DNA of 64,000 nt from an uncultured virus (IMG/VR IMGVR_UViG_3300020020_000024) (lineage: Duplodnaviria; Heunggongvirae; Uroviricota; Caudoviricetes). The stretch lies in the IMG/VR virus record IMGVR_UViG_3300020020_000024; one strand, given 5' to 3'. The translations under genes and the position numbers were made by a program. Shown one piece after another: positions 5,447-52,050 of this stretch. The first letter of the stretch is position 1. Each line of letters begins with the position of its first letter. The notes beneath the pieces are model-generated. The model was not told where the DNA came from. It searched no databases and saw only the letters and a program-made list of their open reading frames with translations.

Positions 5447-5514
5447 AAAAAGATCATTAAAGTTTTTTCGATATAAAATCCAATCTCTTATTTTTTAACC
5501 AAAAATCCAATGTC

Positions 5515-6192
5515 ATGAATAAGGTACAACAGTACATCAATCGTGCAAGAGGTAATTCAAGTAACCAGCACTTGAACTTCGTGAACGATCAAAAAAGTTT
5601 TATCATGCAGCCGAACCTATACGCTAATGGCGCAGGTGCTGGCCCCGCTGCTCCCGTAAAAAAATCAATGCCGTATGCGGTCGTGGTGTCTAGTGCATCA
5701 GGCTCGGCAGTAACTGATTTTGATGTTCTCGGTGCATACGAGTACATCAACAACTCCGGCTTTACTGCTGCGGGTTCACTGGTGATCGGATCAATTACGA
5801 TCAGTTCAGCGATCCCTGGCGTAAGCTACCGTGAGTTGCTGTATCAAACACAGAACAATCCGTTCATGGTGGGTCAGACTTATCTGGCTTGTTCTTCACC
5901 AACAGCCCAAGTGCTGGAAGTGTTCACCATCATCACCAAAGATGCGAACGGTACGCAGGTAAGGATACCTATCGTTCCTGCGGTTGACCCTTATCAGCAA
6001 CAAGATGGTGTGAATGTTGTTGAGCAGGAATATAATATTGATGGTTTCACGAAGCTGACTTTCGCCCGTATTCTTGCGAATGCGGTAGTGACTATCAGGT
6101 TCTACCCATCAGTTAAAATTAATCCTGCCAATCCATTGGCTGGTAAGCCTGACACGGCTGCTTACGGTAACCCTGGTGTTATTCGTCAGTAA
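5515..6192 (+). CDS. putative major capsid protein (beta-rich, single jelly-roll size)
   Basis: Follows the packaging ATPase, is non-membrane and beta-strand rich, is followed by a strong terminator, and has two paralogues in the window. The fold is inferred. Confidence 0.6.
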   Translation: MNKVQQYINRARGNSSNQHLNFVNDQKSFIMQPNLYANGAGAGPAAPVKKSMPYAVVVSSASGSAVTDFDVLGAYEYINNSGFTAAGSLVIGSITISSAIPGVSYRELLYQTQNNPFMVGQTYLACSSPTAQVLEVFTIITKDANGTQVRIPIVPAVDPYQQQDGVNVVEQEYNIDGFTKLTFARILANAVVTIRFYPSVKINPANPLAGKPDTAAYGNPGVIRQ

Positions 6193-18498: not shown

Positions 18499-18921
18499 AT
18501 GTCCGTATATACGCCTACCATAACCATTGCTTCAACTCCTGCGATAGAAATAACAGCAGCTGGCTTGACCTATGATGAATTAATTGCTTCTTTTGGCAAT
18601 TACAATTACCTTATTCGTTGTTTATTTATCCAGGCTTTAAGCATTGATCAAACATTACAGGAACTCACCTTTCAAACATATGATTCAAATGGGCAGATGT
18701 ATATCAGGACAGTATCACCACCTGTGAGCCCGTATCAATATCAGCCATCCCTTATGATGGATGTTCGTGAACAATGTATAATGATCAATGGAAGGACATC
18801 CTTATCATTCAATCTACTTCCGCTTGAAACATTAAGTTTGATGATCTATGCCGCCAGAGATTATGTTGGGGAATATCTTGAACGTTTTGGAATACCAAAT
18901 AAAATGCAGGTGCAGATATGA
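18499..18921 (+). CDS. minor capsid-like protein, paralogue of 5515-6192
   Basis: GLTYDEL / DSNG / VSPYQYQ / INGRTSLSF align with GVSYREL / DANG / VDPYQQQ / IDGFTKLTF. Confidence 0.7.
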   Translation: MSVYTPTITIASTPAIEITAAGLTYDELIASFGNYNYLIRCLFIQALSIDQTLQELTFQTYDSNGQMYIRTVSPPVSPYQYQPSLMMDVREQCIMINGRTSLSFNLLPLETLSLMIYAARDYVGEYLERFGIPNKMQVQI

Positions 18922-20162
18922 GTACTCAGGAGTTTACTATAAAGATTCGTAATAATCGAAATGCGCTGATCCCTATTTCAATATTAGGGAATCCATCTTT
19001 TAGCAGCACATTTAATGCGTTCCGAACGTTTAGTTGGGATATTACACCAGAAACTTTTGCTGATCCAAATTTTAGCATTCAAATAAAATTAAATGCCGCA
19101 CCTGCTTATACAACTTATGGTGGACAGATAAAAACATTGTCAATTGGCGGTTTAGTGGAAGCCCTTAATTTTTTAAACATTGGCCTTTTTTGGATTGAAA
19201 CATCTGGTTCAAATAGTTATATCGTTACAGCCAATGATACTTATTTATACAATGAACTTACAATAGGCAGCAACACATTCGCAATTCAATGGACTGCACG
19301 AACGCCGGCGTTTCTAGGTTCTTTTCATGGTGTTGCTTTTGGTAATGGACTTTTTGTTGCTGTTGATGGTTCAGTTAGTACAAATTTCGTTATGACCTCA
19401 CCTGATGGGATTAACTGGACTGCACAAACCACTCCATTGGGATCGGGATTAGCGGTAATATTTGACGGAAGCCAGTTCGTGGCATTATCAGGAGCAGGTG
19501 TAGCAAATCAAATATTTACCTCACCTGATGGAATTAACTGGACTCAACAAACCACACCATTTGTTATCTCCACATGGCAAGACTTGGCGTTTGGTGGTGG
19601 GGTTTATATTGCTATTGGAATAAATGGAGTGAATACGATTGTGATGACATCTCCTGATTCAGTTGTATGGACATTACAAGCTTCTCTTTCCAATATAAAT
19701 TTAAGAGCGATAACATACGCCAACGGAGGATTTGTAGGCGTTGGTTCATCGGCTGCTTTTCCAACACAATCTGTTGCCACAACAGTCAATGGTGTTGCAT
19801 GGACAATTCAAACAGCATCAGTAGGAAACGACTGGAGAGCCATTGCATTTGGTAACGGAGTATTTGTAGCGGTTTCCAACAATGGTTCAGGAGATCGTGT
19901 AATGACATCTCCTGATGGAGTTAACTGGACAACGAGATCATCTGCTGCGGATCAGACATGGCAAGTAGTAGGATATGGTAACGGAGTATTTGCAGCATTA
20001 GCTATTGCTGGCGGCGGTACTGCCCCAATGTATTCTCTTGATAACGGTGTCACCTGGACGCTGACAACTTCGCCTCCGGGGGATTGGGAATCGCTCACAT
20101 TTGGCAATGGAATGTTTGTGGCCGTGGCTCCTAATTCTACGAGGGTAATGACGTCTCCATAA
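18918..20162 (+). CDS. receptor-binding/spike protein with Asp-box (BNR) beta-propeller repeats
   Basis: About 6-7 repeats of (F/Y)GNGxFVAV...TSPDGxNWT. Confidence 0.8.
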   Translation: MSTQEFTIKIRNNRNALIPISILGNPSFSSTFNAFRTFSWDITPETFADPNFSIQIKLNAAPAYTTYGGQIKTLSIGGLVEALNFLNIGLFWIETSGSNSYIVTANDTYLYNELTIGSNTFAIQWTARTPAFLGSFHGVAFGNGLFVAVDGSVSTNFVMTSPDGINWTAQTTPLGSGLAVIFDGSQFVALSGAGVANQIFTSPDGINWTQQTTPFVISTWQDLAFGGGVYIAIGINGVNTIVMTSPDSVVWTLQASLSNINLRAITYANGGFVGVGSSAAFPTQSVATTVNGVAWTIQTASVGNDWRAIAFGNGVFVAVSNNGSGDRVMTSPDGVNWTTRSSAADQTWQVVGYGNGVFAALAIAGGGTAPMYSLDNGVTWTLTTSPPGDWESLTFGNGMFVAVAPNSTRVMTSP

Positions 20163-22929: not shown

Positions 22930-24765
22930 TTACAACTGAGTGGCAATCCCTACCACATTCTTATTAACGAAAATAAGATCATTGCTTCTCAATTTACTGA
23001 AATAAGTTCCAAATGTTCCACTTGTATGACTCATACCAACGGCTGCACCGATTTCTTCTCTAGTTACACTATTTGGATGCTGACGATCAATAAACCTGAG
23101 CATTTTACCAGGGCCGGAACTTTCACCAAATATTTCAATCCAAAATGAAACCCAATCATCTGGTCTGGATGGAACGTTATTCATTTCTTGCAAATGTTTC
23201 CATCCAAGTTCAGTACATACAACATCTCCATTTACTTTATCAATCAAACCATTTGAACTGAGCGTTGAAAGATGCGTTCCAAACGTTCCGCTTGTTGATG
23301 ACATATCAGCTATTGTACCCATACGAATTCGTGTGATTGCATCGGGATAATAAATACCTGCTGCGTATAACATACGAATAACGCCCGATGACTTTGTCAT
23401 CCTCTTTGCATCAAGAGCAGCACCAGCACTATCTCCATTAGTCTTATAAGCATTTTCAGTATCTGCTATAATAATAGGTTTTTTTAGTACGGGCAATGTC
23501 TTGGCGGCAAGTCTCTGATCTTGGCTCATGATCTCGGTTACGAATTCGGACTTTGATATCTCCGGTTTTACAGCTAAGACAGAAGTTGGAATTTTATGAT
23601 TAAAGTGCTTATCTATAATTGATTTTAAATCAACCATGCTTTTAAGAGCTGCATTTATTTCACTGACTAAAGCACTTGAATATTTTCTTTCTGCATTAAG
23701 GGAAAGTTTCAAATGATTAACCTTTGCCCTTTCATTTATAAATTCACTATTCTTTGATGATAATTCTTTTACAGCATTATCATACTGCTTTTGCAGTTGC
23801 CTGTCTGATATGGGTTGAGCATTTTTTGTGACCTGGACTATTCCTGATTTCTTTAATTCCGCTTTCAGCCGGGAGATTTCGTTTTTATATCCTTGCTTGG
23901 TGGTAATTTCTTTTTCTGCTTCTTCCGGAATCGATTCAAGTTTGGAAAGTATTTTTTTAATTGCCGATGGTGTTGGTGGCATGGAAACAACTTTTGTTCC
24001 CGATTTTATATGAGTTGTTTTTACTTCACCAACTCTAAACTTTATAATCTCTTTGCTGATAGCGGGGCCGAATGCGTAGAACTCTCCTTTGTCGAGATTT
24101 CTCAGATCACGAATTTCTTCTTTTGTTCGTAACCCAAGTTCATCACCAACTCTTTTTTGATCAAGCGGCAAACTAGTGCTACCCATCAATTTGTTTTTAC
24201 ATTGTGCAGCTGCGCTTTTATTCAAGATGCTAATGCGTAATGTGGCAAGTATTGCGCAGAGTCCTCTTTTCCTTCCCCTGGTGCAGAGATCAATTACTGC
24301 AGCAGTTGAAATTGCTCTTTTATCTTCTGGACAAAATAACTGCGCTTCATCAATATAAATCAAGCATGAATGACGCATGTTCTTTGGGGCATTCATTAAC
24401 GCTTCAATGAATGTTTTAACGAACTGTTCTCTTTCGTGTTGCTTGAACTCATAGAGGTCTATGATTGTAGAGATACCCGTTTCAAGTATTTTGTGAGCAA
24501 GAGCTTCCGCATACCTGATACTTAAAGGCAGGTCACCATTTTTACTAACGAGTGCAAAAGGATACTTTTCTCTAAGAGTAACAAACTCTCCTTCTGGGTC
24601 AATAATTATCTGTTGAACCATGCCGGAGCATTCTTCTGCAAGTTTTCTTATTGTCCATGATTTTCCAGAACCGCTATCTGCTTCAAGGAGGAGTTTTGTT
24701 TCTAGCAGACTTGGAAGATCTATTTTTATACCTATGTCAATGGCTTTTTCTTTCATGCTGTTCAT
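22930..24765 (-). CDS. HerA/DUF87-like ATPase with coiled coil and tandem C-terminal winged-helix-like repeats
   Basis: ADSGSGKS, IIIDPEGEF, IYIDEAQ, RGRKRG; duplicated MSxTSGTFGT(H/Y)xSxL. Confidence 0.8.
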   Translation of the reverse strand: MNSMKEKAIDIGIKIDLPSLLETKLLLEADSGSGKSWTIRKLAEECSGMVQQIIIDPEGEFVTLREKYPFALVSKNGDLPLSIRYAEALAHKILETGISTIIDLYEFKQHEREQFVKTFIEALMNAPKNMRHSCLIYIDEAQLFCPEDKRAISTAAVIDLCTRGRKRGLCAILATLRISILNKSAAAQCKNKLMGSTSLPLDQKRVGDELGLRTKEEIRDLRNLDKGEFYAFGPAISKEIIKFRVGEVKTTHIKSGTKVVSMPPTPSAIKKILSKLESIPEEAEKEITTKQGYKNEISRLKAELKKSGIVQVTKNAQPISDRQLQKQYDNAVKELSSKNSEFINERAKVNHLKLSLNAERKYSSALVSEINAALKSMVDLKSIIDKHFNHKIPTSVLAVKPEISKSEFVTEIMSQDQRLAAKTLPVLKKPIIIADTENAYKTNGDSAGAALDAKRMTKSSGVIRMLYAAGIYYPDAITRIRMGTIADMSSTSGTFGTHLSTLSSNGLIDKVNGDVVCTELGWKHLQEMNNVPSRPDDWVSFWIEIFGESSGPGKMLRFIDRQHPNSVTREEIGAAVGMSHTSGTFGTYFSKLRSNDLIFVNKNVVGIATQL

Positions 24766-25192: not shown

Positions 25193-26338
25193 TTATTCTG
25201 ATTGCGCCGGCTGGCTTTGATTATATACTAATTGACGAACAGCACCTAGATAACTTTTATCATCCTTTACTGTAACAAAAATATTATGCTGTATGGGTTT
25301 GTGAAATTGAACCTTGTCTGAATCAATAGATTTCATTACGGTAAGCATTGCTTTCGCATTGAAAATAAATTCATCAATATCGAAATCCTTTTTTACATCC
25401 AAAATCATCTCAGCGTATTTACTGAACTGAGCATTATCATAAACGAATTTAAGTTGTCTTTTCCCTTCGTTTTTAATGATACCCTCACATCCGTATTCGG
25501 TTGGATTATTACCGATAACCATTTGACAAAACTCAATAATCTCAGCACGGTCAAGCGTTACGTTCCCTTCTTTCTTTAATGCAACTATTGGGCTAATATC
25601 ACGGTAAGCAGCTTCCGGTTGCGCAAATCCATAAATTGATTTACCAGTACCAAAGAAATAATATTTACCAGACTGGCTAAACTCAACCTGATCGTATTGA
25701 CAAATTACATTACATGCAGCAGGTTCAAGAACCATGTGTGGTAATGGCTTATCAAATTCTTTGTAGTACATAACCTGACCATCTCCACCCCAAACACAGT
25801 AATGAGTAGGATTGTCGGCAGCACCTAAATTGAAAATGTAAGCATACATTAGCCATGTGCGCACATCTTTTATAGGATCAGAATGATCGGCGGCGGCGGC
25901 AAGTGCTTTTAAAACTGTTTTATCAAGAACAAACACTTCTGTTTTTTCCTGTTTCTCAGGGGCTGGAAAGTTTTCGCCAAAAGGGGCAAAGAAATCCATT
26001 TTCTTTTTACCGCAAACCATGTGTACCTTATTGGTATCAATATTATCTTTCTTTATTGATGTGCTTTCAATGGTAAGTATAGCATCTGACGGAGCATTTT
26101 CAATAATGCTTGACAATGACCTTTCATCAAGAAGAACTTTTATATTCTTTATTTTTTTTGCAACCTCTGCTTCCACTTCATGAATAACAAATGATGCCAT
26201 GCTGTTTTTTGTTAACGTGCAGGTCTCACCATCATATTCAAATTTTATGTAGGCAAGTATGGGAAGGATTTTATTTTCTTTAATTGATTTGCTACGCTGA
26301 AAGAAAGCTCGGACTTCCGAAACTGAAATTGTAATCAT
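25193..26338 (-). CDS. dnaN: divergent DNA sliding clamp (Pol III beta-like)
   Basis: 381 aa; N-terminal ILPILAYIKF and C-terminal FNAKAMLTVMKSIDSDKV match beta-clamp patterns. Confidence 0.65.
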   Translation of the reverse strand: MITISVSEVRAFFQRSKSIKENKILPILAYIKFEYDGETCTLTKNSMASFVIHEVEAEVAKKIKNIKVLLDERSLSSIIENAPSDAILTIESTSIKKDNIDTNKVHMVCGKKKMDFFAPFGENFPAPEKQEKTEVFVLDKTVLKALAAAADHSDPIKDVRTWLMYAYIFNLGAADNPTHYCVWGGDGQVMYYKEFDKPLPHMVLEPAACNVICQYDQVEFSQSGKYYFFGTGKSIYGFAQPEAAYRDISPIVALKKEGNVTLDRAEIIEFCQMVIGNNPTEYGCEGIIKNEGKRQLKFVYDNAQFSKYAEMILDVKKDFDIDEFIFNAKAMLTVMKSIDSDKVQFHKPIQHNIFVTVKDDKSYLGAVRQLVYNQSQPAQSE

Positions 26339-27344: not shown

Positions 27345-27647
27345 ATGGAAGCAGGTCATCAAGTTGAATTAATCCCCATATATGTGCATTATATGCCCAA
27401 GCCATTAGAGCCGGGAAAACTGTACATCTCAAAGGAATTTGGTTTAGCAATACATCTCTGCTGCTGTGGATGCGGGGTAGAAACAGTAACCCCATTAACA
27501 GAAACTCGTGAAAAACCAGGAGACGGATGGGTACTAACCGAAAAAGAAGGTAAGGTTTCCTTGCAGCCATCAATTGGTAATTTTTCAGGTGAAAATCCCT
27601 ATCATGCTCATTATATTATTACTGATAATATAGCGACTTTTGTTTAG
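27345..27647 (+). CDS. DUF6527-like protein
   Basis: LEPGKLYIS...HLCCCGCG...W...VSLQPSIGN...HY. Confidence 0.7.
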   Translation: MEAGHQVELIPIYVHYMPKPLEPGKLYISKEFGLAIHLCCCGCGVETVTPLTETREKPGDGWVLTEKEGKVSLQPSIGNFSGENPYHAHYIITDNIATFV

Positions 27648-27655
27648 CTGTTTTT

Positions 27656-27913
27656 CTAAACACATTTAACTACCTTTCTTCTGTACTGATCACGTGGCCC
27701 GTAATTTTCATCTGGCCTGATAGTAATTAGTGTAGTTGAATTATTGTGTGTGCATATATAAACCTTGCCTTCTGGAATACTGTTTACATGATCTCCGACT
27801 ACTGATTTCCAGTTTTTGTCATAATTGCAAAGAACATGGCCACAAAATATACATACCTGGATTCCGTTTTCAAAAGTGCCAGCATGATGCTGTATATAAA
27901 TTAATTCTGTCAT
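27656..27913 (-). CDS. small Cys/His protein
   Basis: QVCIFCGHVL. Confidence 0.55.
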   Translation of the reverse strand: MTELIYIQHHAGTFENGIQVCIFCGHVLCNYDKNWKSVVGDHVNSIPEGKVYICTHNNSTTLITIRPDENYGPRDQYRRKVVKCV

Positions 27914-27919
27914 AAATAT

Positions 27920-28717
27920 TTAATATCGTTCATCATCTTCAATTACACCATCCCATTCACCGACGAATTTATAATCAAATCCTTTGTCAGCAAAAAAGTT
28001 ACTAATTGCTTTTATATTTCTTTTGCTTTCAAAAAAATAAATACAATCTGTGCGGTAGCAAACGAAGTCATTCCCTACCAGGGCCGCAGCTTGCTGCATG
28101 TAGCTAAAGCAGTTATAACGGATTTTTAAATAAATTCTTTTTAATTGTTCATCGCCTGAAATAATCTCAACTTGATTTGTTTTTATTCCATCTTTTAAAA
28201 CAATATATCTTTTGTCGGCACCGAGAGATGAAAGCGTAGATAACGTCAGCATTTTATTATCGATAACACGAAAGCCATGATTAAATGTATTTTCAGAAAT
28301 AACTTTCATATTACGGGCAATCTGCCAGTAAGCATTATCAAGATCAATTCCAACAATGTTGCGTTTGCTTTTTCTAAGATTTGCATTCCAATGTACTGAT
28401 GGAAGAAATGGTACTGGTCTCTTGATCGGATGTTTCGATAAATATTTCTTTGCGTCTTTCTTGACGAGTCCATAAAGAAAAAGATGCTTTAATGATTTCC
28501 GGTTCTTTTTTAATGTGAACATATATCGCTTACCCCGCCATACAAGTTCTCTACCAAAATAAGTTGATCTGAACCAGGCTTTCACTCCACTTCTTCTGAT
28601 CGTTCTTATATACATAGCCCATCCAGACAGGCCAACAAAAAATTCCTGCTGCTTGAATAACTTCTTTTTTCTAAATGAAACCTTCTCTGATTTGTGAACG
28701 TGATTATTTCTGACCAT
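27920..28717 (-). CDS. minimal family-B DNA polymerase-like (palm-only) protein
   Basis: Motif A-like GIDLDNAYW and motif C-like YRTDCIYF; no exonuclease domain. Start taken at ATG28717. Confidence 0.55.
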   Translation of the reverse strand: MVRNNHVHKSEKVSFRKKKLFKQQEFFVGLSGWAMYIRTIRRSGVKAWFRSTYFGRELVWRGKRYMFTLKKNRKSLKHLFLYGLVKKDAKKYLSKHPIKRPVPFLPSVHWNANLRKSKRNIVGIDLDNAYWQIARNMKVISENTFNHGFRVIDNKMLTLSTLSSLGADKRYIVLKDGIKTNQVEIISGDEQLKRIYLKIRYNCFSYMQQAAALVGNDFVCYRTDCIYFFESKRNIKAISNFFADKGFDYKFVGEWDGVIEDDERY

Positions 28718-29633
28718 ACCCCTTTTTGATGCGGCGACTAAGGGATGTATATTGCTTTTTACTGAGGACGTTATCATTAAATAACTCAGTGAGTCTTTTT
28801 TTCTCTTTCAAATATATTGATTTTAATTTCTGTTTTTTTTGATCTGCTGTTAAAAACATTGACCTCTCCTTGAACTTATGAATATCTTTTTCAATTTGCT
28901 GCCTTATTCTTTTAATTCTGCTTCGCTGCTGCTTCATTTCCTTTAATCTGTCCATCACATATTGCTTAACGTCTTTTGCTTGTTTTTTCTGATATTTCGT
29001 TTTTTTACGTCTTGGTATTTTTACTACTTTGGGTTCTTTCTCCGGTTCATAAACCACTACTTCTGTCGGGCCTTCCAAAACCATTTCCAGGTAGTAATTA
29101 TCAGGATGACCATTGTTTGACTTCCCCGGCAGCACCTGCACCATACCATTATACCTAAATCCTGGACTTGTGCGTTGAAATGGATTTCTATTTAGATATT
29201 GATTGATGTTGTTTGTTATCTGCGCTATGCCGGAAGCATAATAATTGTAATCGGCTGTATTGAAAATATTCGTCTCTCCAAATCCATCAGCATTTACTTT
29301 TATCATGATACACGGTGGCAGGACTCTCCAAATAAATTCAGCAACTACGAAGTATTCTATGTCTGAGTAAGTGCCTGGATCAATTGCAAGGACATTACAA
29401 CCCTTCTTCCTTGGCACCCACTGTATCTTATGAAAAATAAAATCCCGCAATGGTTTTAATCTTATGCGGGAAATACTTTGACCTCTATATGATGGATAAA
29501 TCTTTTTGCTGACGAATGAATAAAGTTCTTTGCGGCTTAGCTTTCTGTTTACTGGCAGGTTTCGGTTTATCGCACTTACCTCCTTTACTAAGAGGTTATA
29601 GATGCGTATCCCTTTGGTTCTGTTACCAGCCAT
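28704..29633 (-). CDS. highly basic hypothetical protein coupled to PolB-like gene
   Basis: K/R-rich N- and C-regions with a Tyr-rich core; overlaps the downstream start. Confidence 0.65.
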   Translation of the reverse strand: MAGNRTKGIRIYNLLVKEVSAINRNLPVNRKLSRKELYSFVSKKIYPSYRGQSISRIRLKPLRDFIFHKIQWVPRKKGCNVLAIDPGTYSDIEYFVVAEFIWRVLPPCIMIKVNADGFGETNIFNTADYNYYASGIAQITNNINQYLNRNPFQRTSPGFRYNGMVQVLPGKSNNGHPDNYYLEMVLEGPTEVVVYEPEKEPKVVKIPRRKKTKYQKKQAKDVKQYVMDRLKEMKQQRSRIKRIRQQIEKDIHKFKERSMFLTADQKKQKLKSIYLKEKKRLTELFNDNVLSKKQYTSLSRRIKKGYGQK

Positions 29634-29782
29634 TCCTGAGATGAAATTTTAAATTGTGTGATTAGCAAAAACGGGGAGACAACATAACAATCAATCTTCA
29701 TAAATTCAAACTAATAACTTCTACTAATGTGAAAAATGTTAAATCGTTGAACTTGTGCCTATTGAGAAATTGTCAACCGGGG

Positions 29783-30052
29783 TTAAGCGGCAATTCGCTT
29801 GGTTATTAAAGTATAAATATCATAGTGATCAAAAAAGTTACAAATTTTAATCATCATTTCATACTTTGGGAATGCGATTGCTCCCGTCCATCGTCGTACA
29901 CGATCCTTGCTTTCGCTCATTTGTTCTGCGAAGTCATCAGTAGTTAAACCTTTTTTCTTTAAAAGAGTTTGCAGGTTGTCAGCAAATACTTTTCTGTCTG
30001 CTGTTGTAGTTGCTTCTTTTTGTTTTATTGAATTCTTAGAGGGCGATTTCAT
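29783..30052 (-). CDS. XRE-family HTH regulator
   Basis: FADNLQTLLKKKGLT..FAE...VRRW...FP. Confidence 0.8.
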   Translation of the reverse strand: MKSPSKNSIKQKEATTTADRKVFADNLQTLLKKKGLTTDDFAEQMSESKDRVRRWTGAIAFPKYEMMIKICNFFDHYDIYTLITKRIAA

Positions 30053-30078: not shown

Positions 30079-31821
30079 TTAGATATGCGGTTTAGATTTA
30101 ATTTTCTTTTTAGGTTTATTATTCTGTATGATCTTTTCAACTTTATCAATCCGTGTTCCGATCCATTCCATAACATCTTTAGTCATCCCATTACCTATTG
30201 CCTGGTATCTTAATGTATCAGGACTTGTTTTCTTTTTATTCCAGGGAATGTTTGTATGATTGTCTGGATAGCCTTGTAATCTTTCACATTCAACCGGGGT
30301 TAATCTTCTTATTACTGATGTTACAGATGCTACTGCAGCCACGATCTGTTGTTGTTCCTGTGACTGCGGTGATCTTGAATCAAGGTTATGTTTTGTAAGA
30401 GTAGGAGAAGTTTGTTTTACGAATTGATAATTGCTTTCTGCTTTTGATCGTAAAGCCTGGGCCGTATCGTTTTCGATCTGACCACCACCGCTTGCCCATT
30501 GTATCTGCTTAGACTCTCCTGCAATTATATGCTGCTGGCCACCCTTAGCAAGTGTTGGAGATGGATCGCCGGTCTTTGGGTTGCTTCTATTCTCTGGACT
30601 TGTTAATTGTGCGGCAGGATAAACAATAGGATTAATAAAACTGAGTGAGTTGCCGCCACTATTCTTTGCTTGTATAGTTGCTGATAGTTCTTCGTTGACT
30701 GTCATGTTGCGAACATCGAGTGATTTTGCATCTTGAATTATAAAAGTTTCCGATTCAAAATCCTGGCGGTTGTTATGTCCTTTGATTGCAGTAGATACAT
30801 TTATTTCACCCTTTGTGTTATTGCCACCAAATGCAACAAGGTGAGAAAAGTTTTGTCGCTGATCTTGACCACTTACACCTTGCAATCTTGCATAACTTGC
30901 ATCAAGAGTTGCCGTTTGTTCTGCTGGCCATTTCTTTTCATCAACAACTAAATTATTATCCAGGCCTCGGTCAGAATAAGGTTTTCTTGAAACAGAATCA
31001 GCTACTAAATTATCATTCCATCCTCTTGCAGAATTTTGTTTTGTAGCAATAGGAGAAGCAGTTTCATTTATTGCTGATCCACGATTGCTTGAAGGATCGC
31101 TCTCAGTTGTGCTGGCAGTTCCCGGCCTCTCCTTTCTGCTCGGCGTAATATTCCCATACAGGCTTTCCGGCTCAAACAATACTGCGAAAGGTGGTCGCCA
31201 GTCGTTTCCAAGATGTCCGACAACAAAGACTCTACGGCGTCTTTGTGGCACTCCGAAATATTTATAGTCCAGCACCCTGAATGCGCAACTATACCCGCAT
31301 TCCTGAAAACCTGTAAGCAGGGCTGCAAAATCTGAACTTTGTATAATGGTGTCGGCATCGGTTGTTCTTCCTCTTGCGTTAATTGTTTTATTTCCTTTAA
31401 CTCCTTTTTTTCTTTTTCTGTTAGTGGTATCTTTTTTACTTTCCTTTTCATCTGAGAAAGAACTAAAAACACCGGGAACATTTTCCCATACGAACCATTT
31501 GGGTTGTTTTCTGAGTAGAATTCTGCAAAAGACAAGGGATAGGTTACCACGCTGGTCATCCAATCCACCTCTGAGACCTGCGACTGAGAATGCTTGACAG
31601 GGAGTTCCTCCAACAATAAGTTCGGGGTTTGTTTCATTGAAAATTTTCTTTTTAGTGAGTTTGCACATATCGCCAAGATTGGGAACATGCGGCCAATGAT
31701 GTTTAAGAACGGCTGAGGGGAATGGTTCAATTTCTGAGAACCATAATGCTTGCCAGCCGAGAGACTGTTCCCATGCAAGTGTTTCAGTACCTAATCCAGT
31801 TGCTACGCTTCCGTAAGTCAT
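30079..31821 (-). CDS. dcm: C5 DNA cytosine methyltransferase with long repetitive variable region
   Basis: GGTPCQAFS (IV), ENVPG (VI), QRRRRVF (VIII), RRLTPVECERLQG (IX), IGNG (X). Confidence 0.92.
   Translation of the reverse strand: MTYGSVATGLGTETLAWEQSLGWQALWFSEIEPFPSAVLKHHWPHVPNLGDMCKLTKKKIFNETNPELIVGGTPCQAFSVAGLRGGLDDQRGNLSLVFCRILLRKQPKWFVWENVPGVFSSFSDEKESKKDTTNRKRKKGVKGNKTINARGRTTDADTIIQSSDFAALLTGFQECGYSCAFRVLDYKYFGVPQRRRRVFVVGHLGNDWRPPFAVLFEPESLYGNITPSRKERPGTASTTESDPSSNRGSAINETASPIATKQNSARGWNDNLVADSVSRKPYSDRGLDNNLVVDEKKWPAEQTATLDASYARLQGVSGQDQRQNFSHLVAFGGNNTKGEINVSTAIKGHNNRQDFESETFIIQDAKSLDVRNMTVNEELSATIQAKNSGGNSLSFINPIVYPAAQLTSPENRSNPKTGDPSPTLAKGGQQHIIAGESKQIQWASGGGQIENDTAQALRSKAESNYQFVKQTSPTLTKHNLDSRSPQSQEQQQIVAAVASVTSVIRRLTPVECERLQGYPDNHTNIPWNKKKTSPDTLRYQAIGNGMTKDVMEWIGTRIDKVEKIIQNNKPKKKIKSKPHI
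31068..31778 (-). CDS. overprinted alternative-frame ORF inside dcm (possible second MTase polypeptide)
   Basis: 236-codon ORF ending ...LSDILETTGDHLSQYCLSRKACMGILRRAERRGRELP; possible start at ATG31358. Confidence 0.55.
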   Translation of the reverse strand: MHGNSLSAGKHYGSQKLNHSPQPFLNIIGRMFPILAICANSLKRKFSMKQTPNLLLEELPVKHSQSQVSEVDWMTSVVTYPLSFAEFYSENNPNGSYGKMFPVFLVLSQMKRKVKKIPLTEKEKKELKEIKQLTQEEEQPMPTPLYKVQILQPCLQVFRNAGIVAHSGCWTINISECHKDAVESLLSDILETTGDHLSQYCLSRKACMGILRRAERRGRELPAQLRAILQAIVDQQ

Positions 31822-31823
31822 TA

Positions 31824-32291
31824 TTATTTTTTAAATACGATATATGAAAATCCGTGTTCATTTGTAAATTGAAATTCTTCTACATGGCAACTCATGTACC
31901 TGCCCCAATCGGTTACGATTCCTGGACGAAACAAACAGGATGTTGCTAATTGCAAATCATCATTGAGAATTAAAATTATATATCCATCTTGCTTGCATAC
32001 ATCAACCAACTGATGAAGTGTTCTCCAAAACAAAGGATCGGCATTTAGGCAATCACAAAGAACTACGTCAAAATGATCAGATGGCAATCTCCAATCATAC
32101 CACTTATCATCTTTTCTTACATAAGTGCTACCCGAATTCTTACTAAGGGTTTCATAGACATCTTTATTGTCTAAAACTGGTTTGTAATTATAACCTTGTT
32201 TACCACCGCCTACATGAAGAATTTTTGATTCTCTTGGTATGTATCTGTTTTTAAAAAGATCGTAAACTGTTTTAGGGATATTATTATTCAT
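31824..32291 (-). CDS. divergent class I SAM-methyltransferase-fold protein
   Basis: KILHVGGG, FDVVLC, CKQDGYIIL. Confidence 0.5.
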   Translation of the reverse strand: MNNNIPKTVYDLFKNRYIPRESKILHVGGGKQGYNYKPVLDNKDVYETLSKNSGSTYVRKDDKWYDWRLPSDHFDVVLCDCLNADPLFWRTLHQLVDVCKQDGYIILILNDDLQLATSCLFRPGIVTDWGRYMSCHVEEFQFTNEHGFSYIVFKK

Positions 32292-33417
32292 TGATATTGG
32301 TTTTCTTCGGATGTTCTTGCATCAAGATAAGGGCAAAAACGGCATAATTCAAAATATCAAAATAGTTTGCGTCAATGCCTTCGCTTTTTGTAGTATTTAC
32401 GTTTAAAAGCTGCCTGATCCGGTTAAGTTTCATGATGATAATATCAACAAAACTCGTCTGCGTCATTTCCCTCCATGCTTCTCCGTAATCATGATTCTTA
32501 TCCATCATTAAAAACTTTGCTCTGTTTGTTGCATAGTCATACATTCCAGATAACTGATTTAATTCAATTTCTTTTGAATCCTGGTCGGTTAATCCTAGTT
32601 GTATCAAACCAATTACAGAATAGTTAACTACACCTATGAATTCAGAACGAATGCTATCGGGTATTTTCTGTTCACCAGCAACCTGGATTGTTCTGATACG
32701 TTTAGTTTTAATATAAATTTGATCCACGATCGACAGGGTTCTTAAAACTCTCCATGCAGTACCGTAATCCTTTGCCTTTTCCATAAAAATTAATTTACAG
32801 TCAGCGATGGCAGTTCCATATTGTTGATCAGTAGTAGGCGGTTGTTGCTGGTCATTATTTACTACGGCCCCGGTAGATTTTGAACTAGTTGTATCTAAAT
32901 TAGTTGGATCGAAATCGTTAACAAGTTTCAGAAAATCGTTAAGTGAAATAGGAGGCGCACCAGGAAATTTTACATTGATATGTGCAACATAACTTCTGTA
33001 TGCAATTGCAAGTGATTTTAAATCGCTGCTTTCATAGGCATATTTTACATAGGTCATTATCATCTGCTCATGAATAACATCAGCCTCAGTCTTTGACATA
33101 AACATTTCTTTGAATTGTTCAATAGTAGGTACAACACAATCAGGATGGTTGGTTTCAAGATCAGCACAGAATTTATTGTAGCTATGCAGCAATCTTGGCA
33201 TCTCAATATCTGGTTTCGGCTCAACAGCAGACAAGTGTTTTACCTTATCACGATGCATTTGCCTTATAGCATATTCTGACAAAGCATTTTTGTCTTTCTT
33301 TTTAACAAGAATCATAAGAGCATCATCACTTAACTCTTGGATAGAAATAGGGATGATGTCTTTTTTAGTAGATTTTTTTGAAGATTTTCTTTTTGCAGTT
33401 TTTATTCTCGTTGCCAT
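32284..33417 (-). CDS. tandem DUF1599 (nucleotide-modification-associated domain 1) protein with N-terminal extension
   Basis: KAKDYGTAWR...IYIKTKRI and KNHDYGEAWR...DILNYAVFALI. Confidence 0.85.
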   Translation of the reverse strand: MATRIKTAKRKSSKKSTKKDIIPISIQELSDDALMILVKKKDKNALSEYAIRQMHRDKVKHLSAVEPKPDIEMPRLLHSYNKFCADLETNHPDCVVPTIEQFKEMFMSKTEADVIHEQMIMTYVKYAYESSDLKSLAIAYRSYVAHINVKFPGAPPISLNDFLKLVNDFDPTNLDTTSSKSTGAVVNNDQQQPPTTDQQYGTAIADCKLIFMEKAKDYGTAWRVLRTLSIVDQIYIKTKRIRTIQVAGEQKIPDSIRSEFIGVVNYSVIGLIQLGLTDQDSKEIELNQLSGMYDYATNRAKFLMMDKNHDYGEAWREMTQTSFVDIIIMKLNRIRQLLNVNTTKSEGIDANYFDILNYAVFALILMQEHPKKTNINE

Positions 33418-33450
33418 TATTTGGGATTTTTATAGGTGAAAATATTTTTA

Positions 33451-33738
33451 TTATTTAATTGCTTCAACTTGCGAAATGTGCATATACTGCGGTTTCTTTA
33501 TGCCATCCCACTTTACACAAATTGTTGCATCAGAAAAATGATTAATTGCTCCTTTTAAAAAGTCAACGACTTTGCCCCTTTTTTTTCTATTCCAATTTCC
33601 TTGCATTACTAAACCGAACTCCGATAATTTAACCCGACAGCCTATTTCGTGTGGTTTCTTTATGCCAACACTATTTTTTTGCTGACAGTACGCTTCAACG
33701 ATTGCCATTGCTTCTCTGAACTGTTGAGCAGTTATCAT
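33451..33738 (-). CDS. hypothetical protein (SH3-like)
   Basis: IGCRVKL...GKVV...VKWDG. Confidence 0.55.
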   Translation of the reverse strand: MITAQQFREAMAIVEAYCQQKNSVGIKKPHEIGCRVKLSEFGLVMQGNWNRKKRGKVVDFLKGAINHFSDATICVKWDGIKKPQYMHISQVEAIK

Positions 33739-34301
33739 TATTTTAGTTCTGAATATCTAAGTTGTAATTCAATAAAAAATTTAATATCAATTTTCCACCA
33801 CTCACAGAACTTAATGATAAGGGCAATTACATAGCCCCAATCAATATGAAACAAGCCTTGCTTATGGGCGGCTAGGATAAATTGGTTAAGCAATAGTAAA
33901 TCTTCCCCAATACTTCCAGATGATACCCTGCGACACTCTCTTGAATATAGAGGTTCTGAGTATGCTTGCATGTAATCAAGTATCTTCAAGAACACACTTA
34001 CAACTTTTGCTTCAAGTGTTGGAATAAAATAAGTCTCATGCCATATCCGGAACGCACTACTATCACTTGCTTTATCAAAGGGGCCGCAGTCTTTCCATTC
34101 GTCAAAGTCAACCTTCTCATATGTATCACCTTTCAAGTGTCTTGACAGAACGCCGCCAAGCTCAGAAATGATGACCATTATGATCTCAGCACGGTTCTTA
34201 TTTGGCTTATCTTGCCAATAGCCATGTTTATATGAAAGTTCATGAACCCGTTGCTGGTAATTGAAAATATCCTCAATGTTTATTGTATTTTCTATTGTCA
34301 T
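33738..34301 (-). CDS. divergent MazG/dimeric NTP-pyrophosphatase-like protein
   Basis: VHELSYKHGYW...IISELG; helical; ends IELQLRYS. Confidence 0.5.
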   Translation of the reverse strand: MTIENTINIEDIFNYQQRVHELSYKHGYWQDKPNKNRAEIIMVIISELGGVLSRHLKGDTYEKVDFDEWKDCGPFDKASDSSAFRIWHETYFIPTLEAKVVSVFLKILDYMQAYSEPLYSRECRRVSSGSIGEDLLLLNQFILAAHKQGLFHIDWGYVIALIIKFCEWWKIDIKFFIELQLRYSELK

Positions 34302-35389
34302 AAATTTGCTTTTTTAAGTAGCCTGGAATCAAATTGATTTTCACTAGCAAATAATTTACGATATTGGGTATAGCCACGAAAATTTCCACACCATCCGTAT
34401 TCTTTTACATAAATCTTTTTACCATCTTCATACATATAATCAAAATGATGAAGGATTTGATATTTCTTTGAATATATCTGTTCGTAAAAATCATGCGGCA
34501 TTGAAACTACTTTGTGATGAACAAACCACTCTTTCATTGTCATTACCCTGGCGCAATGTTCAAATGGACTCCAGTGCTTAGACGTTGCCAGCCGATTATG
34601 AAGTTTTACAAGGCTATCAAAATTCATTTCCTTTTCTCCGTCACCAACTACTGTGTAACTTGTTTGGGCGCATCTTGCAGTAGCAATTTTTATTTTTGCC
34701 TTTATAATGAGTTCATCTGCATTATCAGCACCATTGCTTGCTTTTAGATCGGGCAGCATTATAGCAGCTAACATCTCAGCGTTCTCAGCCGTATCAATTT
34801 TATCTCCAAATGGAATATGCCACTCACCTTCTTTCAATTGCTTTGGTGTGTTGTTATTGAACGACTCCAGCATCATTTCCGCAAGCTTGCTAATATGTAT
34901 ATCGGCTGCACCATCAGCCCGTAGCGCAAAAAAGTTTTCCCACTCTGTTGCACTTAATAAAGCGGTGTGGTACATAAATGGTTCAAGTAGTCTGTTACAC
35001 ATTTGTTTGGTAAGACCAAGTATGGTCATTTGTTCTGCGGCCTTAATTGCTGCATCTCTTGCCTCCAACCAGGTTTGTTTAAATACAGATGTGCGGGTAT
35101 ATGTTTGTGAACCATCAGGGCTTTCGCAAACATCGGTATCATTAAAATATTCTGTTCCCTGCATTCCTTTATGTTCCTTCATCCAAGCCATAGGAATGAA
35201 CGGATTTTCCTCAACAGCCGCAACCATTTTTTTAAATGGGATCGCCCTGCTGCTGGCACTATTGCGGGTCAGCATACGATGGGTGTTTAATTCGGCCAGG
35301 ATATAACGGGGAAAAGTAGTAAGAGGGGTAATGAGGCGGCAACCCATAGGGCTGACGCTATCAGCAACAATGTTTAAAGAAAAACTCAT
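34298..35389 (-). CDS. thyX: FAD-dependent thymidylate synthase (ThyX/Thy1-like)
   Basis: PRYILAELNTHRMLTRNSASSRAIP, KQMCNRLLEPF, HWSPFEH. Confidence 0.85.
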   Translation of the reverse strand: MSFSLNIVADSVSPMGCRLITPLTTFPRYILAELNTHRMLTRNSASSRAIPFKKMVAAVEENPFIPMAWMKEHKGMQGTEYFNDTDVCESPDGSQTYTRTSVFKQTWLEARDAAIKAAEQMTILGLTKQMCNRLLEPFMYHTALLSATEWENFFALRADGAADIHISKLAEMMLESFNNNTPKQLKEGEWHIPFGDKIDTAENAEMLAAIMLPDLKASNGADNADELIIKAKIKIATARCAQTSYTVVGDGEKEMNFDSLVKLHNRLATSKHWSPFEHCARVMTMKEWFVHHKVVSMPHDFYEQIYSKKYQILHHFDYMYEDGKKIYVKEYGWCGNFRGYTQYRKLFASENQFDSRLLKKANL

Positions 35390-36028: not shown

Positions 36029-36429
36029 TTTTTATTCTTCTCATTGGGTCTGAATGATGACTTAGTAAATAAATGCTTTTCATCCTTCTCTCCGATAACC
36101 GCTTTATAATGACGAAAAAAATAATCAACTGATGTTATATATGCTGTGTCTTTATGATCTCCAAAGTATTGAAAAAATAAGGCAATATGATAAAAGTACA
36201 AAGCCATTCTATACCCAATTAAGTCACCAACAACTACCTTGTTATCCACATTTCCGGCTTCAATAAGGGGTATAACTGTCTTATGAATATCTTTCCAATG
36301 ATTGAGTATTTTAACACCACCTATCCAGAATCTTTTCTGCTCTTTTGTAGGGAACGTTTTGATGATTTTGATATAATCATCAGTAGCAATTATAAGTGGC
36401 TTAATTATATTTGTTTCAAATACTATCAT
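36025..36429 (-). CDS. hypothetical protein
   Basis: Coupled ORF. Confidence 0.55.
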   Translation of the reverse strand: MIVFETNIIKPLIIATDDYIKIIKTFPTKEQKRFWIGGVKILNHWKDIHKTVIPLIEAGNVDNKVVVGDLIGYRMALYFYHIALFFQYFGDHKDTAYITSVDYFFRHYKAVIGEKDEKHLFTKSSFRPNEKNKK

Positions 36430-37925
36430 AAGTCAGCAAACATACCAAAACTTTGTTCAATTCTTTTATCCTTCAACTTCACATATTTTGGATTTAACTC
36501 TACTCCAATATAGTCACGGTTTAATCCTTTTGCAACTACGGCTACTGTTCCTGACCCCATAAAAGGATCTAGAATTACCGCAGGTTTTATAGGGTGCTGA
36601 TCGAGAGGGATTTTTGGTTCGTAAACCGTGTACTCGTTCTTTTCACCCTCAATATAAAGCGGATCGGTTTTAGTCAATTTCTTTTTAACAAATTTTCCAT
36701 GACATTCGCAGGTAGGCTCCCATCCAACAGATTTATAAACATTCATCATGCCTTCTGCAAATACACTATTCTCCGTGCTTTTGTCGCCACGATATCGCTT
36801 AACGGTCTCGGTAGATTTTTTACTGATTGCTTTTTTGTTTTGTACCTGACCATCTTTTACGAGTATTCTTTTCCAGGGTTTACCGCAGTCAGCACAGCAA
36901 CCCTTTTCACTTGATGCAGCCTTTATACATATACGAGGAAGTTCTTCGGGGAATACAGCAAAATGAGCATCTTTATATGGTTTATTATTAATGACCCAAA
37001 CACTTCTTTTGTTACGCAGATATTCACCATTCGGCCCGCGCAGCCAACGTTCATGACCGCTTGCATGAAAAGTATTTTCAACCTGTCCTGGAACAAAAGC
37101 GCCGTTGTATTTTGTTGCGGGTTTCATCATGGTTGTTTTCCTGCCATCAAAATTTGCTTCCTCCATGATCGCATAAGTATCGAAATAATAACGGTTGGTT
37201 TTTGTGAACATGAAAAGATATTCATGACTCTTTGTGCAACGATCCTTTACTGATTCAGGAAGCGGATTATCTTTTTGCCATATAATATCCTGACGCAAGT
37301 ACCAACCTTCTGTTTTAAACATCTCTGTGAAATTCCAGAGATCAATTGTATTTTTTAAAGTTGAGATGTACGCTAAATTCTTTTCATCTATTGCTTGTTG
37401 CAGCATTGCAGACCAATCAGAAAGCACACTATGAGAAATAACGCTCGATCCACGCAGCGCCAGGGCCACCGACCAGGGAACACCAAACAAATCCTTTGGC
37501 TTTATATTATCATTTTCTCCCGGCGCAGCATTACCACCATCATAGCGGCCTGAGCCACGATCAATGCGTTTTGATTTACTGAATTTAGGAGATGGTTTTG
37601 ATGGAGGCGCATTCCCTTTATTTTCTCTATCTCCATTAAACGATTGTGCCTTTCCATAGTTATCTCCCCAATAAGCAGCATAGGTGTCACCAAGATTCAA
37701 AAAGAAAACGCCAGTAGGTTTTAATATACGTTGTACTTCTTTAAACACCTGCATTTGATTGCGGATATATTCATATATCGTTGTTTCAAGACCAAGTTGA
37801 CCTTTTATATCATAGTCACGAAGTTGAAAATAGGGTGGACTTGTTATACAACAGTCGGCATAGTTATCATCAAACTTTTTTAATTCCAATCTGGCGTCGC
37901 CAGTAAGGATCAGATTTCTTTTCAT
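36426..37925 (-). CDS. N4/N6 DNA methyltransferase (beta class)
   Basis: TSPPY, LRQDIIW.K, HFAVFP, ILDPFMGSGT. Confidence 0.92.
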   Translation of the reverse strand: MKRNLILTGDARLELKKFDDNYADCCITSPPYFQLRDYDIKGQLGLETTIYEYIRNQMQVFKEVQRILKPTGVFFLNLGDTYAAYWGDNYGKAQSFNGDRENKGNAPPSKPSPKFSKSKRIDRGSGRYDGGNAAPGENDNIKPKDLFGVPWSVALALRGSSVISHSVLSDWSAMLQQAIDEKNLAYISTLKNTIDLWNFTEMFKTEGWYLRQDIIWQKDNPLPESVKDRCTKSHEYLFMFTKTNRYYFDTYAIMEEANFDGRKTTMMKPATKYNGAFVPGQVENTFHASGHERWLRGPNGEYLRNKRSVWVINNKPYKDAHFAVFPEELPRICIKAASSEKGCCADCGKPWKRILVKDGQVQNKKAISKKSTETVKRYRGDKSTENSVFAEGMMNVYKSVGWEPTCECHGKFVKKKLTKTDPLYIEGEKNEYTVYEPKIPLDQHPIKPAVILDPFMGSGTVAVVAKGLNRDYIGVELNPKYVKLKDKRIEQSFGMFADL

Positions 37926-51099: not shown

Positions 51100-51286
51100 C
51101 CTCAGCCATCAGCATGTATGCAGCATTATCGGCAGCCATGAAATAAGTCAGGTTGTGTTCCTGCTCCCATTTGAAGGCGCAGGTATCGCACATCTTCCCG
51201 CATTCACCAAGTTTACCTTGTTGCTTAGCTTTCTCAGCCCCCGCTTTCGCCAGTTGTGATATTGATTCTGCGTAACTGACTATCAT
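50996..51286 (-). CDS. small Cys/His protein
   Basis: MCDTCAF...FNCH...CAGF. Confidence 0.6.
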   Translation of the reverse strand: MIVSYAESISQLAKAGAEKAKQQGKLGECGKMCDTCAFKWEQEHNLTYFMAADNAAYMLMAEGGFNCHTPQFKDAGRPCAGFEFAKLVFEKDDEQK

Positions 51287-52050
51287 TATTTATCAATTGT
51301 AATAAGACAAGAAGCGACATTTGCGCCACTCTCTTTAAATGTATCCTGCGGTAAATCATCAATATTTGAATTGAGATTGTTTAGCCACCTTTCAAACTCT
51401 TTTTCTTTTTTCGTACTCACAATACGAAAATGATTTGAACACACTGTAACGATCCGGCCACCTGGAGCGCAGACTTCATACATCATCCTGATATGATCAA
51501 TATCCTGGTTCTTTGCAAATGGAGGATTGGCGATAATAATATCGAATAATAAGTTTTTTTGTTTATACTTTTTGATATCCAAAAAGTTATTGCAGATAAG
51601 TCTGCCGTCGTCACTAATATTTTCAAGTAGTTCGTGTTTGGTTGTATCAAGCTCACAGTACCAGTAAAGATTTTTACAACCGTTCCGGTGAGCAGCATGG
51701 ATTAAAGCACCTTCTCCGGCATGTGGTTCAAGAAATGTGACAGGAGGCTTTTTTAATCTTGCACTTGGAAAAGCCAAACCAATCATGTGATCAGATAAAC
51801 CCTTTGGGGTATAAAATGATTGAAACTCTTTTTGCAAGTTTCTTTTTACTCCACCCGCTACCTGGGCCACAAGATCAGTAGGATCATGAGGAAACAAAAA
51901 CCCTTGTTCTTTTTTATTCCAAGCACCACCTATTTTTTGTAATGTAGTTGATACTTGAAGATATAGCGGTCTTTCTAATTGAACATCTGGCAGCTTAACC
52001 AGTTTTCCTTTAATTGTACATTGCTTTAATACTTCTTCTTTTGTTTCCAT
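51286..52050 (-). CDS. N6-adenine methyltransferase-like protein
   Basis: FYTP, LEPHAGEGA, IIANPPF, FKESG. Confidence 0.85.
   Translation of the reverse strand: METKEEVLKQCTIKGKLVKLPDVQLERPLYLQVSTTLQKIGGAWNKKEQGFLFPHDPTDLVAQVAGGVKRNLQKEFQSFYTPKGLSDHMIGLAFPSARLKKPPVTFLEPHAGEGALIHAAHRNGCKNLYWYCELDTTKHELLENISDDGRLICNNFLDIKKYKQKNLLFDIIIANPPFAKNQDIDHIRMMYEVCAPGGRIVTVCSNHFRIVSTKKEKEFERWLNNLNSNIDDLPQDTFKESGANVASCLITIDK

Follow-up and report, generated by a model that had tools for sequence, protein, structure and literature searches.

The window analysed here is a 64,000-nucleotide stretch of DNA from an uncultured virus of the Caudoviricetes (IMG/VR record IMGVR_UViG_3300020020_000024). Its minus strand carries two overlapping genes that are the subject of this report: one encodes a very basic protein of 309 amino acids (aa), called the partner below, and the other, directly downstream, encodes a 265-aa protein, called the palm protein, that resembles the catalytic core of family-B DNA polymerases (PolBs). 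The same two genes recur side by side in many other viral contigs, and they may be a reduced terminal-protein and polymerase module for linear genomes that end in inverted terminal repeats (ITRs).

The palm gene's initiation codon lies inside the partner reading frame, and therefore the two genes overlap (Table 1). The longest reading frame of the palm gene runs from 27920-28777 and would give 285 aa, so a longer form is possible; the 265-aa form used here is the one present in the protein collection (entry P0001), and the longest contig that carries the same palm protein is 132,863 bp. The initial annotation had described an open reading frame (ORF) of about 265 aa with the motifs GIDLDNAYW and YRTDCIYF, in which the first Asp of the PolB DTD signature is replaced, translationally coupled to a very basic 309-aa ORF with a Tyr-rich core. 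The coordinates and translation agree with this description, as do the gene overlap and the isoelectric point (pI) of the partner (10.16 overall, with 65 Lys plus Arg), 10 of whose 19 Tyr residues fall within its central domain. The absence of an exonuclease, also remarked on there, holds as well. Motif A starts about 120 residues from the palm protein's N-terminus and about 40 residues remain after motif C; the protein is without an exonuclease domain and without the TPR1 insertion of protein-primed polymerases, and it has no room for a normal thumb. No exonuclease family of Pfam matched the window's palm protein or 122 members of its family, and PHROGs gave no exonuclease match to it. A search for fused palm forms, 654-2000 aa in length, came back empty, which argues only weakly against their existence.

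Table 1. Features of the partner and palm gene locus, with positions in the window.
Feature	Position	Strand	Basis or remark
Partner gene, 309 aa, three-part protein	28704..29633	-	ORF; homologue upstream of palm gene in 60/61 loci
Palm gene, 265 aa, exonuclease-less PolB-like core	27920..28717	-	ORF, family and structure comparison
Partner/palm gene overlap, 14 nt	28704..28717	-	Palm ATG 28717-28715; partner stop TAA 28706-28704
Motif A-like GIDLDNAYW, residues 123-131	28325..28351	-	D125 invariant; Y130 and W131 at least 90% conserved
Lys155 codon, candidate motif B lysine	28253..28255	-	At least 90% conserved
Motif C-like YRTDCIYF, residues 221-228	28034..28057	-	D224 invariant, at a beta-hairpin turn in the model
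Tyr180 codon, motif P-x-N-Y-Y, candidate priming residue	29094..29096	-	At least 90% conserved
Thr121 codon, motif G-x-T-x-I-F-N, alternative candidate priming residue	29271..29273	-	At least 90% conserved
Cys-rich ORF, 85 aa, possibly co-transcribed	27656..27913	-	Starts 6 nt past palm stop
Gap of 149 nt between helix-turn-helix gene (29783-30052) and partner gene, likely start of the unit	29634..29782	-	

The palm protein belongs to a large unannotated viral family. An exhaustive profile search gave 506 representatives (clusters at 50% identity) at E ≤ 0.001, of which 145 lie at ≤ 1e-10 and 55 at ≤ 1e-30, almost all of them 220-300 aa long; a word-indexed search for the same relatives gave only 2. 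The window's own contig was absent from the viral and metagenome collections searched, where the best identities to the window's palm protein are 39% and 42%, respectively, and the three ESM Atlas clusters nearest to it by features are 100% viral, with Uroviricota the commonest group. The first hidden Markov model placed a partner homologue directly upstream of the palm gene, on the same strand, in 50 of 61 loci, and three iterations raised this to 60, the single exception being a 4.6-kb contig with a weak palm match. Pair occurrences number 53 loci in IMG/VR, six on contigs of metagenome-assembled genomes (MAGs) or genomes and at least 421 in metagenomes. With 506 family representatives and this nearly invariable partner-then-palm adjacency, the pairing is far beyond chance.

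Known protein families shed little light on either gene. Neither window protein matched Pfam or PHROGs, the sole row being phrog_31909 at E 0.083. Across the 122 palm family members Pfam gave no consistent family (RVT_1 matched 1/122 at 0.0024, which is chance level for that many scans), and PHROGs matched one member, to a PHROG of unknown function. Among PDB sequences, profiles A1 and A3 found no match and profile A2 found designed helical repeat proteins only, aligned to the Lys-rich tail. The palm members P0001 and P0018 had no tblastn match in 50,697 phage records, and therefore no cultured carrier was found.

Residues D125 and D224 are invariant in the 122 aligned palm proteins, and V85, Y130, W131, A134, I140, K155 and M207 are conserved in at least 90% of them; the family consensus is TDLNxAYWxIA ... 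KxxRLAALSxLG ... Y[RK]TDCIYY. These positions can be set beside those of an alignment of four protein-primed PolBs (pPolBs), the phi29, PRD1, Bam35c and Cp-1 polymerases. In motif A, which in PolBs reads DxxSLYPS and supplies the catalytic Asp and the steric-gate Tyr, the D-x4-Y spacing (D125, Y130) equals that of D246...Y251 in the pPolB alignment. In motif B (Kx3NSxYG) the conserved K155 is followed by xxRLAALSxLG, so that the N, S and Y are not retained. At motif C (YxDTDS) the family has Y-[RK]-T-D-C, in which the second Asp is the invariant D224 and the first is replaced. The interval from motif B to motif C, where pPolBs carry the TPR2 insertion, measures 69 residues versus 75 in the pPolBs, and the model places a hairpin at 169-186 with low confidence. 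Passages of a published account (PMC11161782) describe PolBs that are active although the first Asp of DTD is missing, and its loss is thus compatible with activity; they also record exonuclease-less pPolBs, namely those of the mavirus virophage and the Tlr1-like proteins.

An AlphaFold model of the palm protein, built on three sequences only, is poor overall (predicted local distance difference test score, pLDDT, 49.6). Its better part, residues 121-252 (pLDDT about 70), has its elements in palm order: a strand that ends at D125/D127, helices, a hairpin, a long helix, a second hairpin with D224 at the turn, a helix and a strand. Motif A forms the strand 121-127, followed by a helix; the model therefore contains the two hallmarks of a right-hand palm, a motif A strand that ends in Asp and a motif C hairpin with Asp at its turn. 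Foldseek comparison of this model with BFVD gave six matches at E ≤ 0.001, four of which are named DNA polymerases or PolB-like and two of which are unnamed. The best (3.8e-5, probability 1.00) is to an Enterococcus phage protein named "DNA polymerase B-like protein", several phage DNA polymerases come next, and the lower rows include crAss-type polymerases, a divergent PolB and herpesvirus helicase-primase subunits. Against the PDB nothing was found at E ≤ 0.001, the top sub-threshold rows being nearly all retron or other reverse transcriptases (RTs) and family-B polymerases. The ESM Atlas provides an independent model of the exact palm protein, with a predicted template modelling (TM) score, pTM, of 0.70. 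This model aligns with PF03175 (DNA_pol_B_2) clusters at TM 0.59 over 222 residues and 0.60 over 217 (span 25-265) and with PF00136 clusters at TM 0.54 over 192 residues and 0.51 over 169, and the nearest named Atlas clusters by features are likewise PF03175 (0.87) and PF00136 (0.84).

We conclude that the palm protein is a right-hand polymerase palm, closest to the polymerase half of family-B enzymes. This placement draws on structure and motifs, sequence profiles being blind to the relationship. The PolB-like enzyme of the initial annotation is supported to this extent: the protein is PolB-like by structure and its candidate catalytic residues are invariant. Profile comparisons such as hhalign failed to connect it to the known enzymes.

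The partner is a protein of three parts. Its N-terminus (residues 1-75) is basic and helical with a pI of 11.5, the central domain (residues 76-205) is acidic with a pI of 5.1, and the C-terminus (residues 206-309) is Lys-rich and helical and ends in a SHOCT-like motif; SHOCT (PF09851) was matched at the C-terminus in eight of 48 members of the partner family. The partner has few close relatives. Only T121 and Y180 are conserved at 90% or more across the 48 partner sequences, among which Tyr180 is nearly invariant (it is present in 92% of 52 rows), and these two are the candidate priming residues of Table 1. Models of the partner are poor (pLDDT 60.5; pTM 0.27 for the Atlas model). In one 352-aa partner homologue, P0005, the first approximately 70 residues, that is the basic helical N-terminal domain, are duplicated in tandem.

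The genomes that carry the pair appear to be linear, and a number of them end in ITRs. Of 25 IMG/VR records of relatives, four are classed as having ITRs, 21 as linear and none as having direct terminal repeats (DTRs); for IMG/VR the relevant passage of the CheckV paper gives 15,211 DTR contigs versus 624 ITR contigs (PMC8116208). When both 3-kb ends of 28 contigs were compared, ITRs were found in 10, from eight lineages, and direct repeats in none. Exact ITRs are present in G016 (653 bp), G018 (127 bp), G021 (132-133 bp) and G022 (123 bp). In G003, G014 and G024 one end closes with 50-114 nt whose exact reverse complement lies 0.4-0.9 kb inside the other end, the pattern that would be expected from an ITR collapsed by the assembler. 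A 48-nt exact terminal inverted match in G002 was counted with these collapsed signatures. The right end of G013 runs into the reverse complement of the G014 left end, a cross-genome confirmation of the G014 repeat. Inverted matches in G006, G015 and G027 are weak (short, imperfect or non-terminal) and were not counted as ITRs.

The position of the pair in these genomes is also far from random. Among 35 IMG/VR contigs of at least 30 kb, the palm gene lies within 10 kb of the upstream-side end in 23 and of the downstream-side end in three; after de-duplication at 90% palm identity, 14 of 23 lie within 10 kb of the upstream-side end (3.7 expected) and one within that distance of the downstream-side end. 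Where the pair is near one contig end it usually reads inward, and in the 96%-complete G001 the start of the partner gene and the contig end are 87 nt apart.

Several of the ends have features of their own. In G003 (L066:640-696 and L067:2944-3000) the inner edge of a repeat of about 0.7 kb covers the ribosome-binding-site region and the first 4-5 codons, so that the inward-reading first genes at the two ends have an identical start and then diverge. The 123-bp ITR of the 67.8-kb, 100%-complete G022 contains a tRNA-Leu gene with anticodon AAG (L186:8-82 and L187:2919-2993), which is oriented outward and stops 7 nt short of each contig end. Contig C9 of G026 (132,486 bp, from a Sediminibacterium sp. 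MAG) carries inverted arrays of the 11-nt unit GGGAATTTCGT at both ends (L200:1-90 and L201:2810-3000), followed by G-rich repeats, a telomere-like terminus on a phage-sized contig; there are two arrays at its right end, so that the left contig end must fall short of the full repeat. Hairpin telomeres were considered for the group and rejected, since no protelomerase was found in the 25 records and all repeat matches found were between opposite contig ends. A Mu-like transposable phage was likewise rejected, on the indirect grounds that the ITRs are exact and 123-904 bp long and that the genomes measure 50-146 kb; transposase families were not searched.

Other replication genes are scarce in the relatives. 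The PolA, PolB and Pol III alpha families (PF00476, PF00136 and PF07733) were found in none of the 25 viral records, nine of which are at least 90% complete, PF03175 in none of five phage records, and neither Prim-Pol nor protelomerase in any of the 25; DnaB matched in two of the 25. A PHROG scan of the 71 ORFs of G001 revealed no polymerase, primase or helicase except a helicase-like region in a giant DarB-like protein. The pair thus appears, from these family searches, to be the only polymerase candidate in the 25 records.

The two genes had been proposed to form a unit of their own, which is not strictly so. The 85-aa Cys-rich ORF follows the palm gene so closely that the unit may include a third member, which would be a non-conserved one, since this ORF had no BLASTP match in related loci and is not conserved with the pair. 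A promoter and terminator motif scan gave nothing above shuffled sequence (15 promoter-like sites versus 13.4 expected, and no terminators). Between window positions 20 and 37 kb, the only genes in common with the related loci are the pair itself. Downstream of the pair, 44 of 59 such loci encode RecT (PF03837) and 46 encode a member of a 264-aa family; the 64-kb window has neither, and therefore these frequent neighbours are not obligate partners of the pair.

The window is phage DNA; it encodes DNA methyltransferases, a sigma factor and lysis enzymes, as well as a HerA/FtsK-type ATPase and a Phg_2220_C replication-initiation-like protein, and none of its scanned ORFs matched a DNA polymerase family. 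A sliding-clamp-like gene (25193-26338, minus strand; phrog_947 at 4.3e-11) lies 1.6 kb downstream of the pair, and between the two a DUF6527 gene (27345-27647, plus strand) stands alone on the opposite strand within a block of minus-strand genes. The 611-aa HerA/DUF87-type ATPase (22930-24765, minus strand) also matches a PHROG named "terminase large subunit." At 32284-35389 (minus strand) the window encodes a protein with two DUF1599 domains, a pyrophosphatase-like protein and a ThyX-like thymidylate synthase homologue, and at least four DNA methyltransferase genes are present (30079-31821, 36426-37925, 51286-52050 and 61465-63984); together this nucleotide-modification cluster and the methyltransferases suggest that the DNA of the window's phage may be modified. 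Three window ORFs (within 5461-6189 and 18499-20162, plus strand) belong to a family found in 27 of 59 related loci and probably encode virion proteins, and through this shared family the window's phage is linked to the ITR-bearing group by more than the pair. The window has no tRNA gene and only one trivial tandem repeat.

How might such a pair work? The two genes would form one replication module, in which the 309-aa basic protein is the obligate partner of the 265-aa protein. The latter would be a miniature DNA polymerase that lacks proofreading and uses Asp125 and Tyr130 of motif A, Lys155, and Asp224 of motif C. The partner would bind the genome ends and supply a hydroxyl group, for which Tyr180 or Thr121 are the candidates; the small polymerase would add the first nucleotide onto the partner, and synthesis would then start at the ITRs. 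The result could be strand-displacement replication of the whole genome, or the host replisome could copy the interior and leave the ends to be filled in by the pair. The latter seems the more plausible of the two, because the genomes are 50-146 kb long, the enzyme has no proofreading domain and a replication-initiation-like gene is carried. Catalytic activity, an interaction between partner and palm protein, protein priming and the identity of the priming residue are all things that we infer here, and ITR ends, which are observed in the relatives, are presumed for the window's own phage.

Given a PRD1-like gene layout, linear genomes with ITRs and no other polymerase, protein-primed initiation would be the most economical mechanism. 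We put the chance that the pair is a reduced terminal-protein and polymerase module serving linear ITR genomes of 50-146 kb at about even. The fuller claim is more tentative, and we rate it as somewhat more apt to fail than to hold: that this is a new protein-primed system, consisting of a PolB-type polymerase smaller than any now known (about 250 aa, lacking an exonuclease, TPR1 and a normal thumb) and a new family of terminal proteins, which would start synthesis at the ITRs of tailed-phage genomes of 50-146 kb that have no other polymerase. A protein-primed end-patching pair was what the initial annotation had proposed. The linear ITR-bearing relatives, with no other recognisable polymerase, provide just the setting where protein-primed end replication or patching is expected, and the pairing is strict; the partner, on the other hand, showed no similarity to the phi29 and PRD1 terminal proteins. 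The terminal inverted repeats foreseen with such a pair do occur in the relatives, as described above.

A number of observations weigh against protein priming by the pair. No sequence method ties the palm protein to PolB, whether Pfam or a search of phage records with PF03175 and PF00136, and hhalign of the palm family against the phi29 polymerase and against the four-member pPolB alignment gave probabilities below 1%. TPR1, through which phi29-type enzymes bind their terminal protein, is absent, D125 and K155 being 30 residues apart versus 134 (D246-K380) in the pPolB alignment. Fold comparison of the partner with BFVD and the Atlas, limited by the poor quality of the partner models, brought up no terminal protein, and hhalign of the partner against the PRD1 P8 and phi29 p3 terminal proteins again gave probabilities below 1%. 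The established terminal-protein families are not known to be mutually similar either. No ITR was found in 18 of the 28 contigs, many of which are incomplete, and in the window at least 28 kb separate the pair from either end, the contig's own ends being outside the view. The frequent RecT and 264-aa neighbours would also fit a role in recombination or repair. Finally, in a survey of double-stranded DNA viruses, all genomes reported to have protein-primed systems were smaller than 50 kb (PMC4889955).

Some of these points lend weight to a two-subunit specialised polymerase that does without protein priming, starting from DNA or RNA primers or, in the manner of primer-independent PolBs, de novo, in recombination-dependent replication or repair; the basic partner would then be a DNA-binding subunit that replaces the missing thumb, or a processivity factor, and the association with ITR genomes would reflect phage lineage only. 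The missing TPR1, the Lys-rich long helices of the partner's C-terminal third, the sliding-clamp-like protein encoded nearby in the window and the distance of the window's pair from a window end all agree with this explanation, as does the frequency of RecT and the 264-aa family downstream of the pair, although the absence of both from the window detracts from this last point. It accounts poorly for the location of the pair near one end of ITR genomes far above expectation, for a gene order that matches terminal-protein-then-polymerase operons and for the pair's status as the only polymerase candidate in the 25 records, and we consider it unlikely, though deserving of real attention.

Two further explanations take the palm protein out of replicative synthesis. 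It could be a non-replicative nucleotidyltransferase, that is, a template-independent or protein-primed polymer synthase of the AbiK/Abi-P2 or defence-RT type that acts in host takeover or counter-defence. This is improbable: the BFVD and Atlas comparisons favour PolB over RT, the lone RVT_1 match is at chance level, the three nearest Atlas clusters are entirely viral, and the pair sits in an early or replication region rather than among defence genes. Less probable still, to the point that we give it very little credence, is a catalytically dead scaffold derived from PolB that organises other replication proteins in the manner of a herpesvirus helicase-primase accessory subunit. Such subunits do appear in the BFVD comparison (E 1.1e-3 to 2e-2), and the palm protein has another residue in place of the first Asp of DTD, but the expected metal-binding residues D125 and D224 are invariant in 122 proteins, Y130 and K155 are conserved in at least 90%, and active PolBs without the first Asp are reported in passages of PMC11161782.

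If the pair does prime synthesis at genome ends, large tailed phages, above the reported ceiling of about 50 kb, would join the viruses that use protein-primed replication or end patching, and a widespread unannotated phage gene pair would have a function. A minimal PolB catalytic core of about 250 residues would bear on polymerase evolution and would be a compact enzyme. It would also be explained why pair-bearing phages assemble as linear contigs with ITR ends and not as circles.

The closest parallels in layout are PRD1, Bam35c, Cp-1 and phi29. In their annotated records the terminal-protein gene is directly upstream of or overlaps the polymerase gene, 0.2-3.7 kb from a genome end; the pair resembles them in that a protein of about 230-310 aa is encoded upstream, near the end of a linear ITR genome (in the relatives), with few other replication genes. 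The enzymes themselves differ substantially. The four phage polymerases are 553-735 aa long by their annotated coordinates, have a 3'-5' exonuclease, TPR1 and TPR2 and match PF03175, whereas the palm protein is about 250 aa long and has no exonuclease, TPR1 or profile match. Their genomes are 15-19 kb, compared to 50-146 kb for the pair-bearing phages, and the partner shows no similarity to the PRD1 or phi29 terminal proteins. In Streptomyces, the Tap/Tpg system serves a linear replicon that is copied from the inside and whose ends are completed by terminal-protein-primed synthesis. Tap and Tpg are not known to be polymerases themselves, a cellular polymerase performing the synthesis. The likeness of the pair to Tap/Tpg is drawn at the level of concept. 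Neither window protein matched any Pfam family.

The pipolin piPolB, an enzyme mentioned in PMC11161782, is similar to the palm protein in being a divergent PolB without the first Asp of DTD that is carried on a mobile element. The piPolBs differ from it in being full-length and having an exonuclease domain, and they are not known to come with a basic partner gene of their own. PMC11161782 also describes pPolBs of the mavirus virophage and Tlr1-like (pPolB-S1H) types, which like the palm protein have lost the exonuclease, kept the palm and lack the first motif C Asp, and which retain or are predicted to retain activity (PMC11161782). Those are proteins of eukaryotic viruses with fused terminal-protein and vOTU domains, and they have kept both TPR1 and TPR2 (PMC11161782); in the pair, the putative primer protein is a separate gene product without a protease domain, and the hosts are bacterial. 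The literature searched, with supplementary files outside its scope, contains no description of the palm and partner family. In function, the pair may be a variant on the theme of a terminal protein and its PolB.

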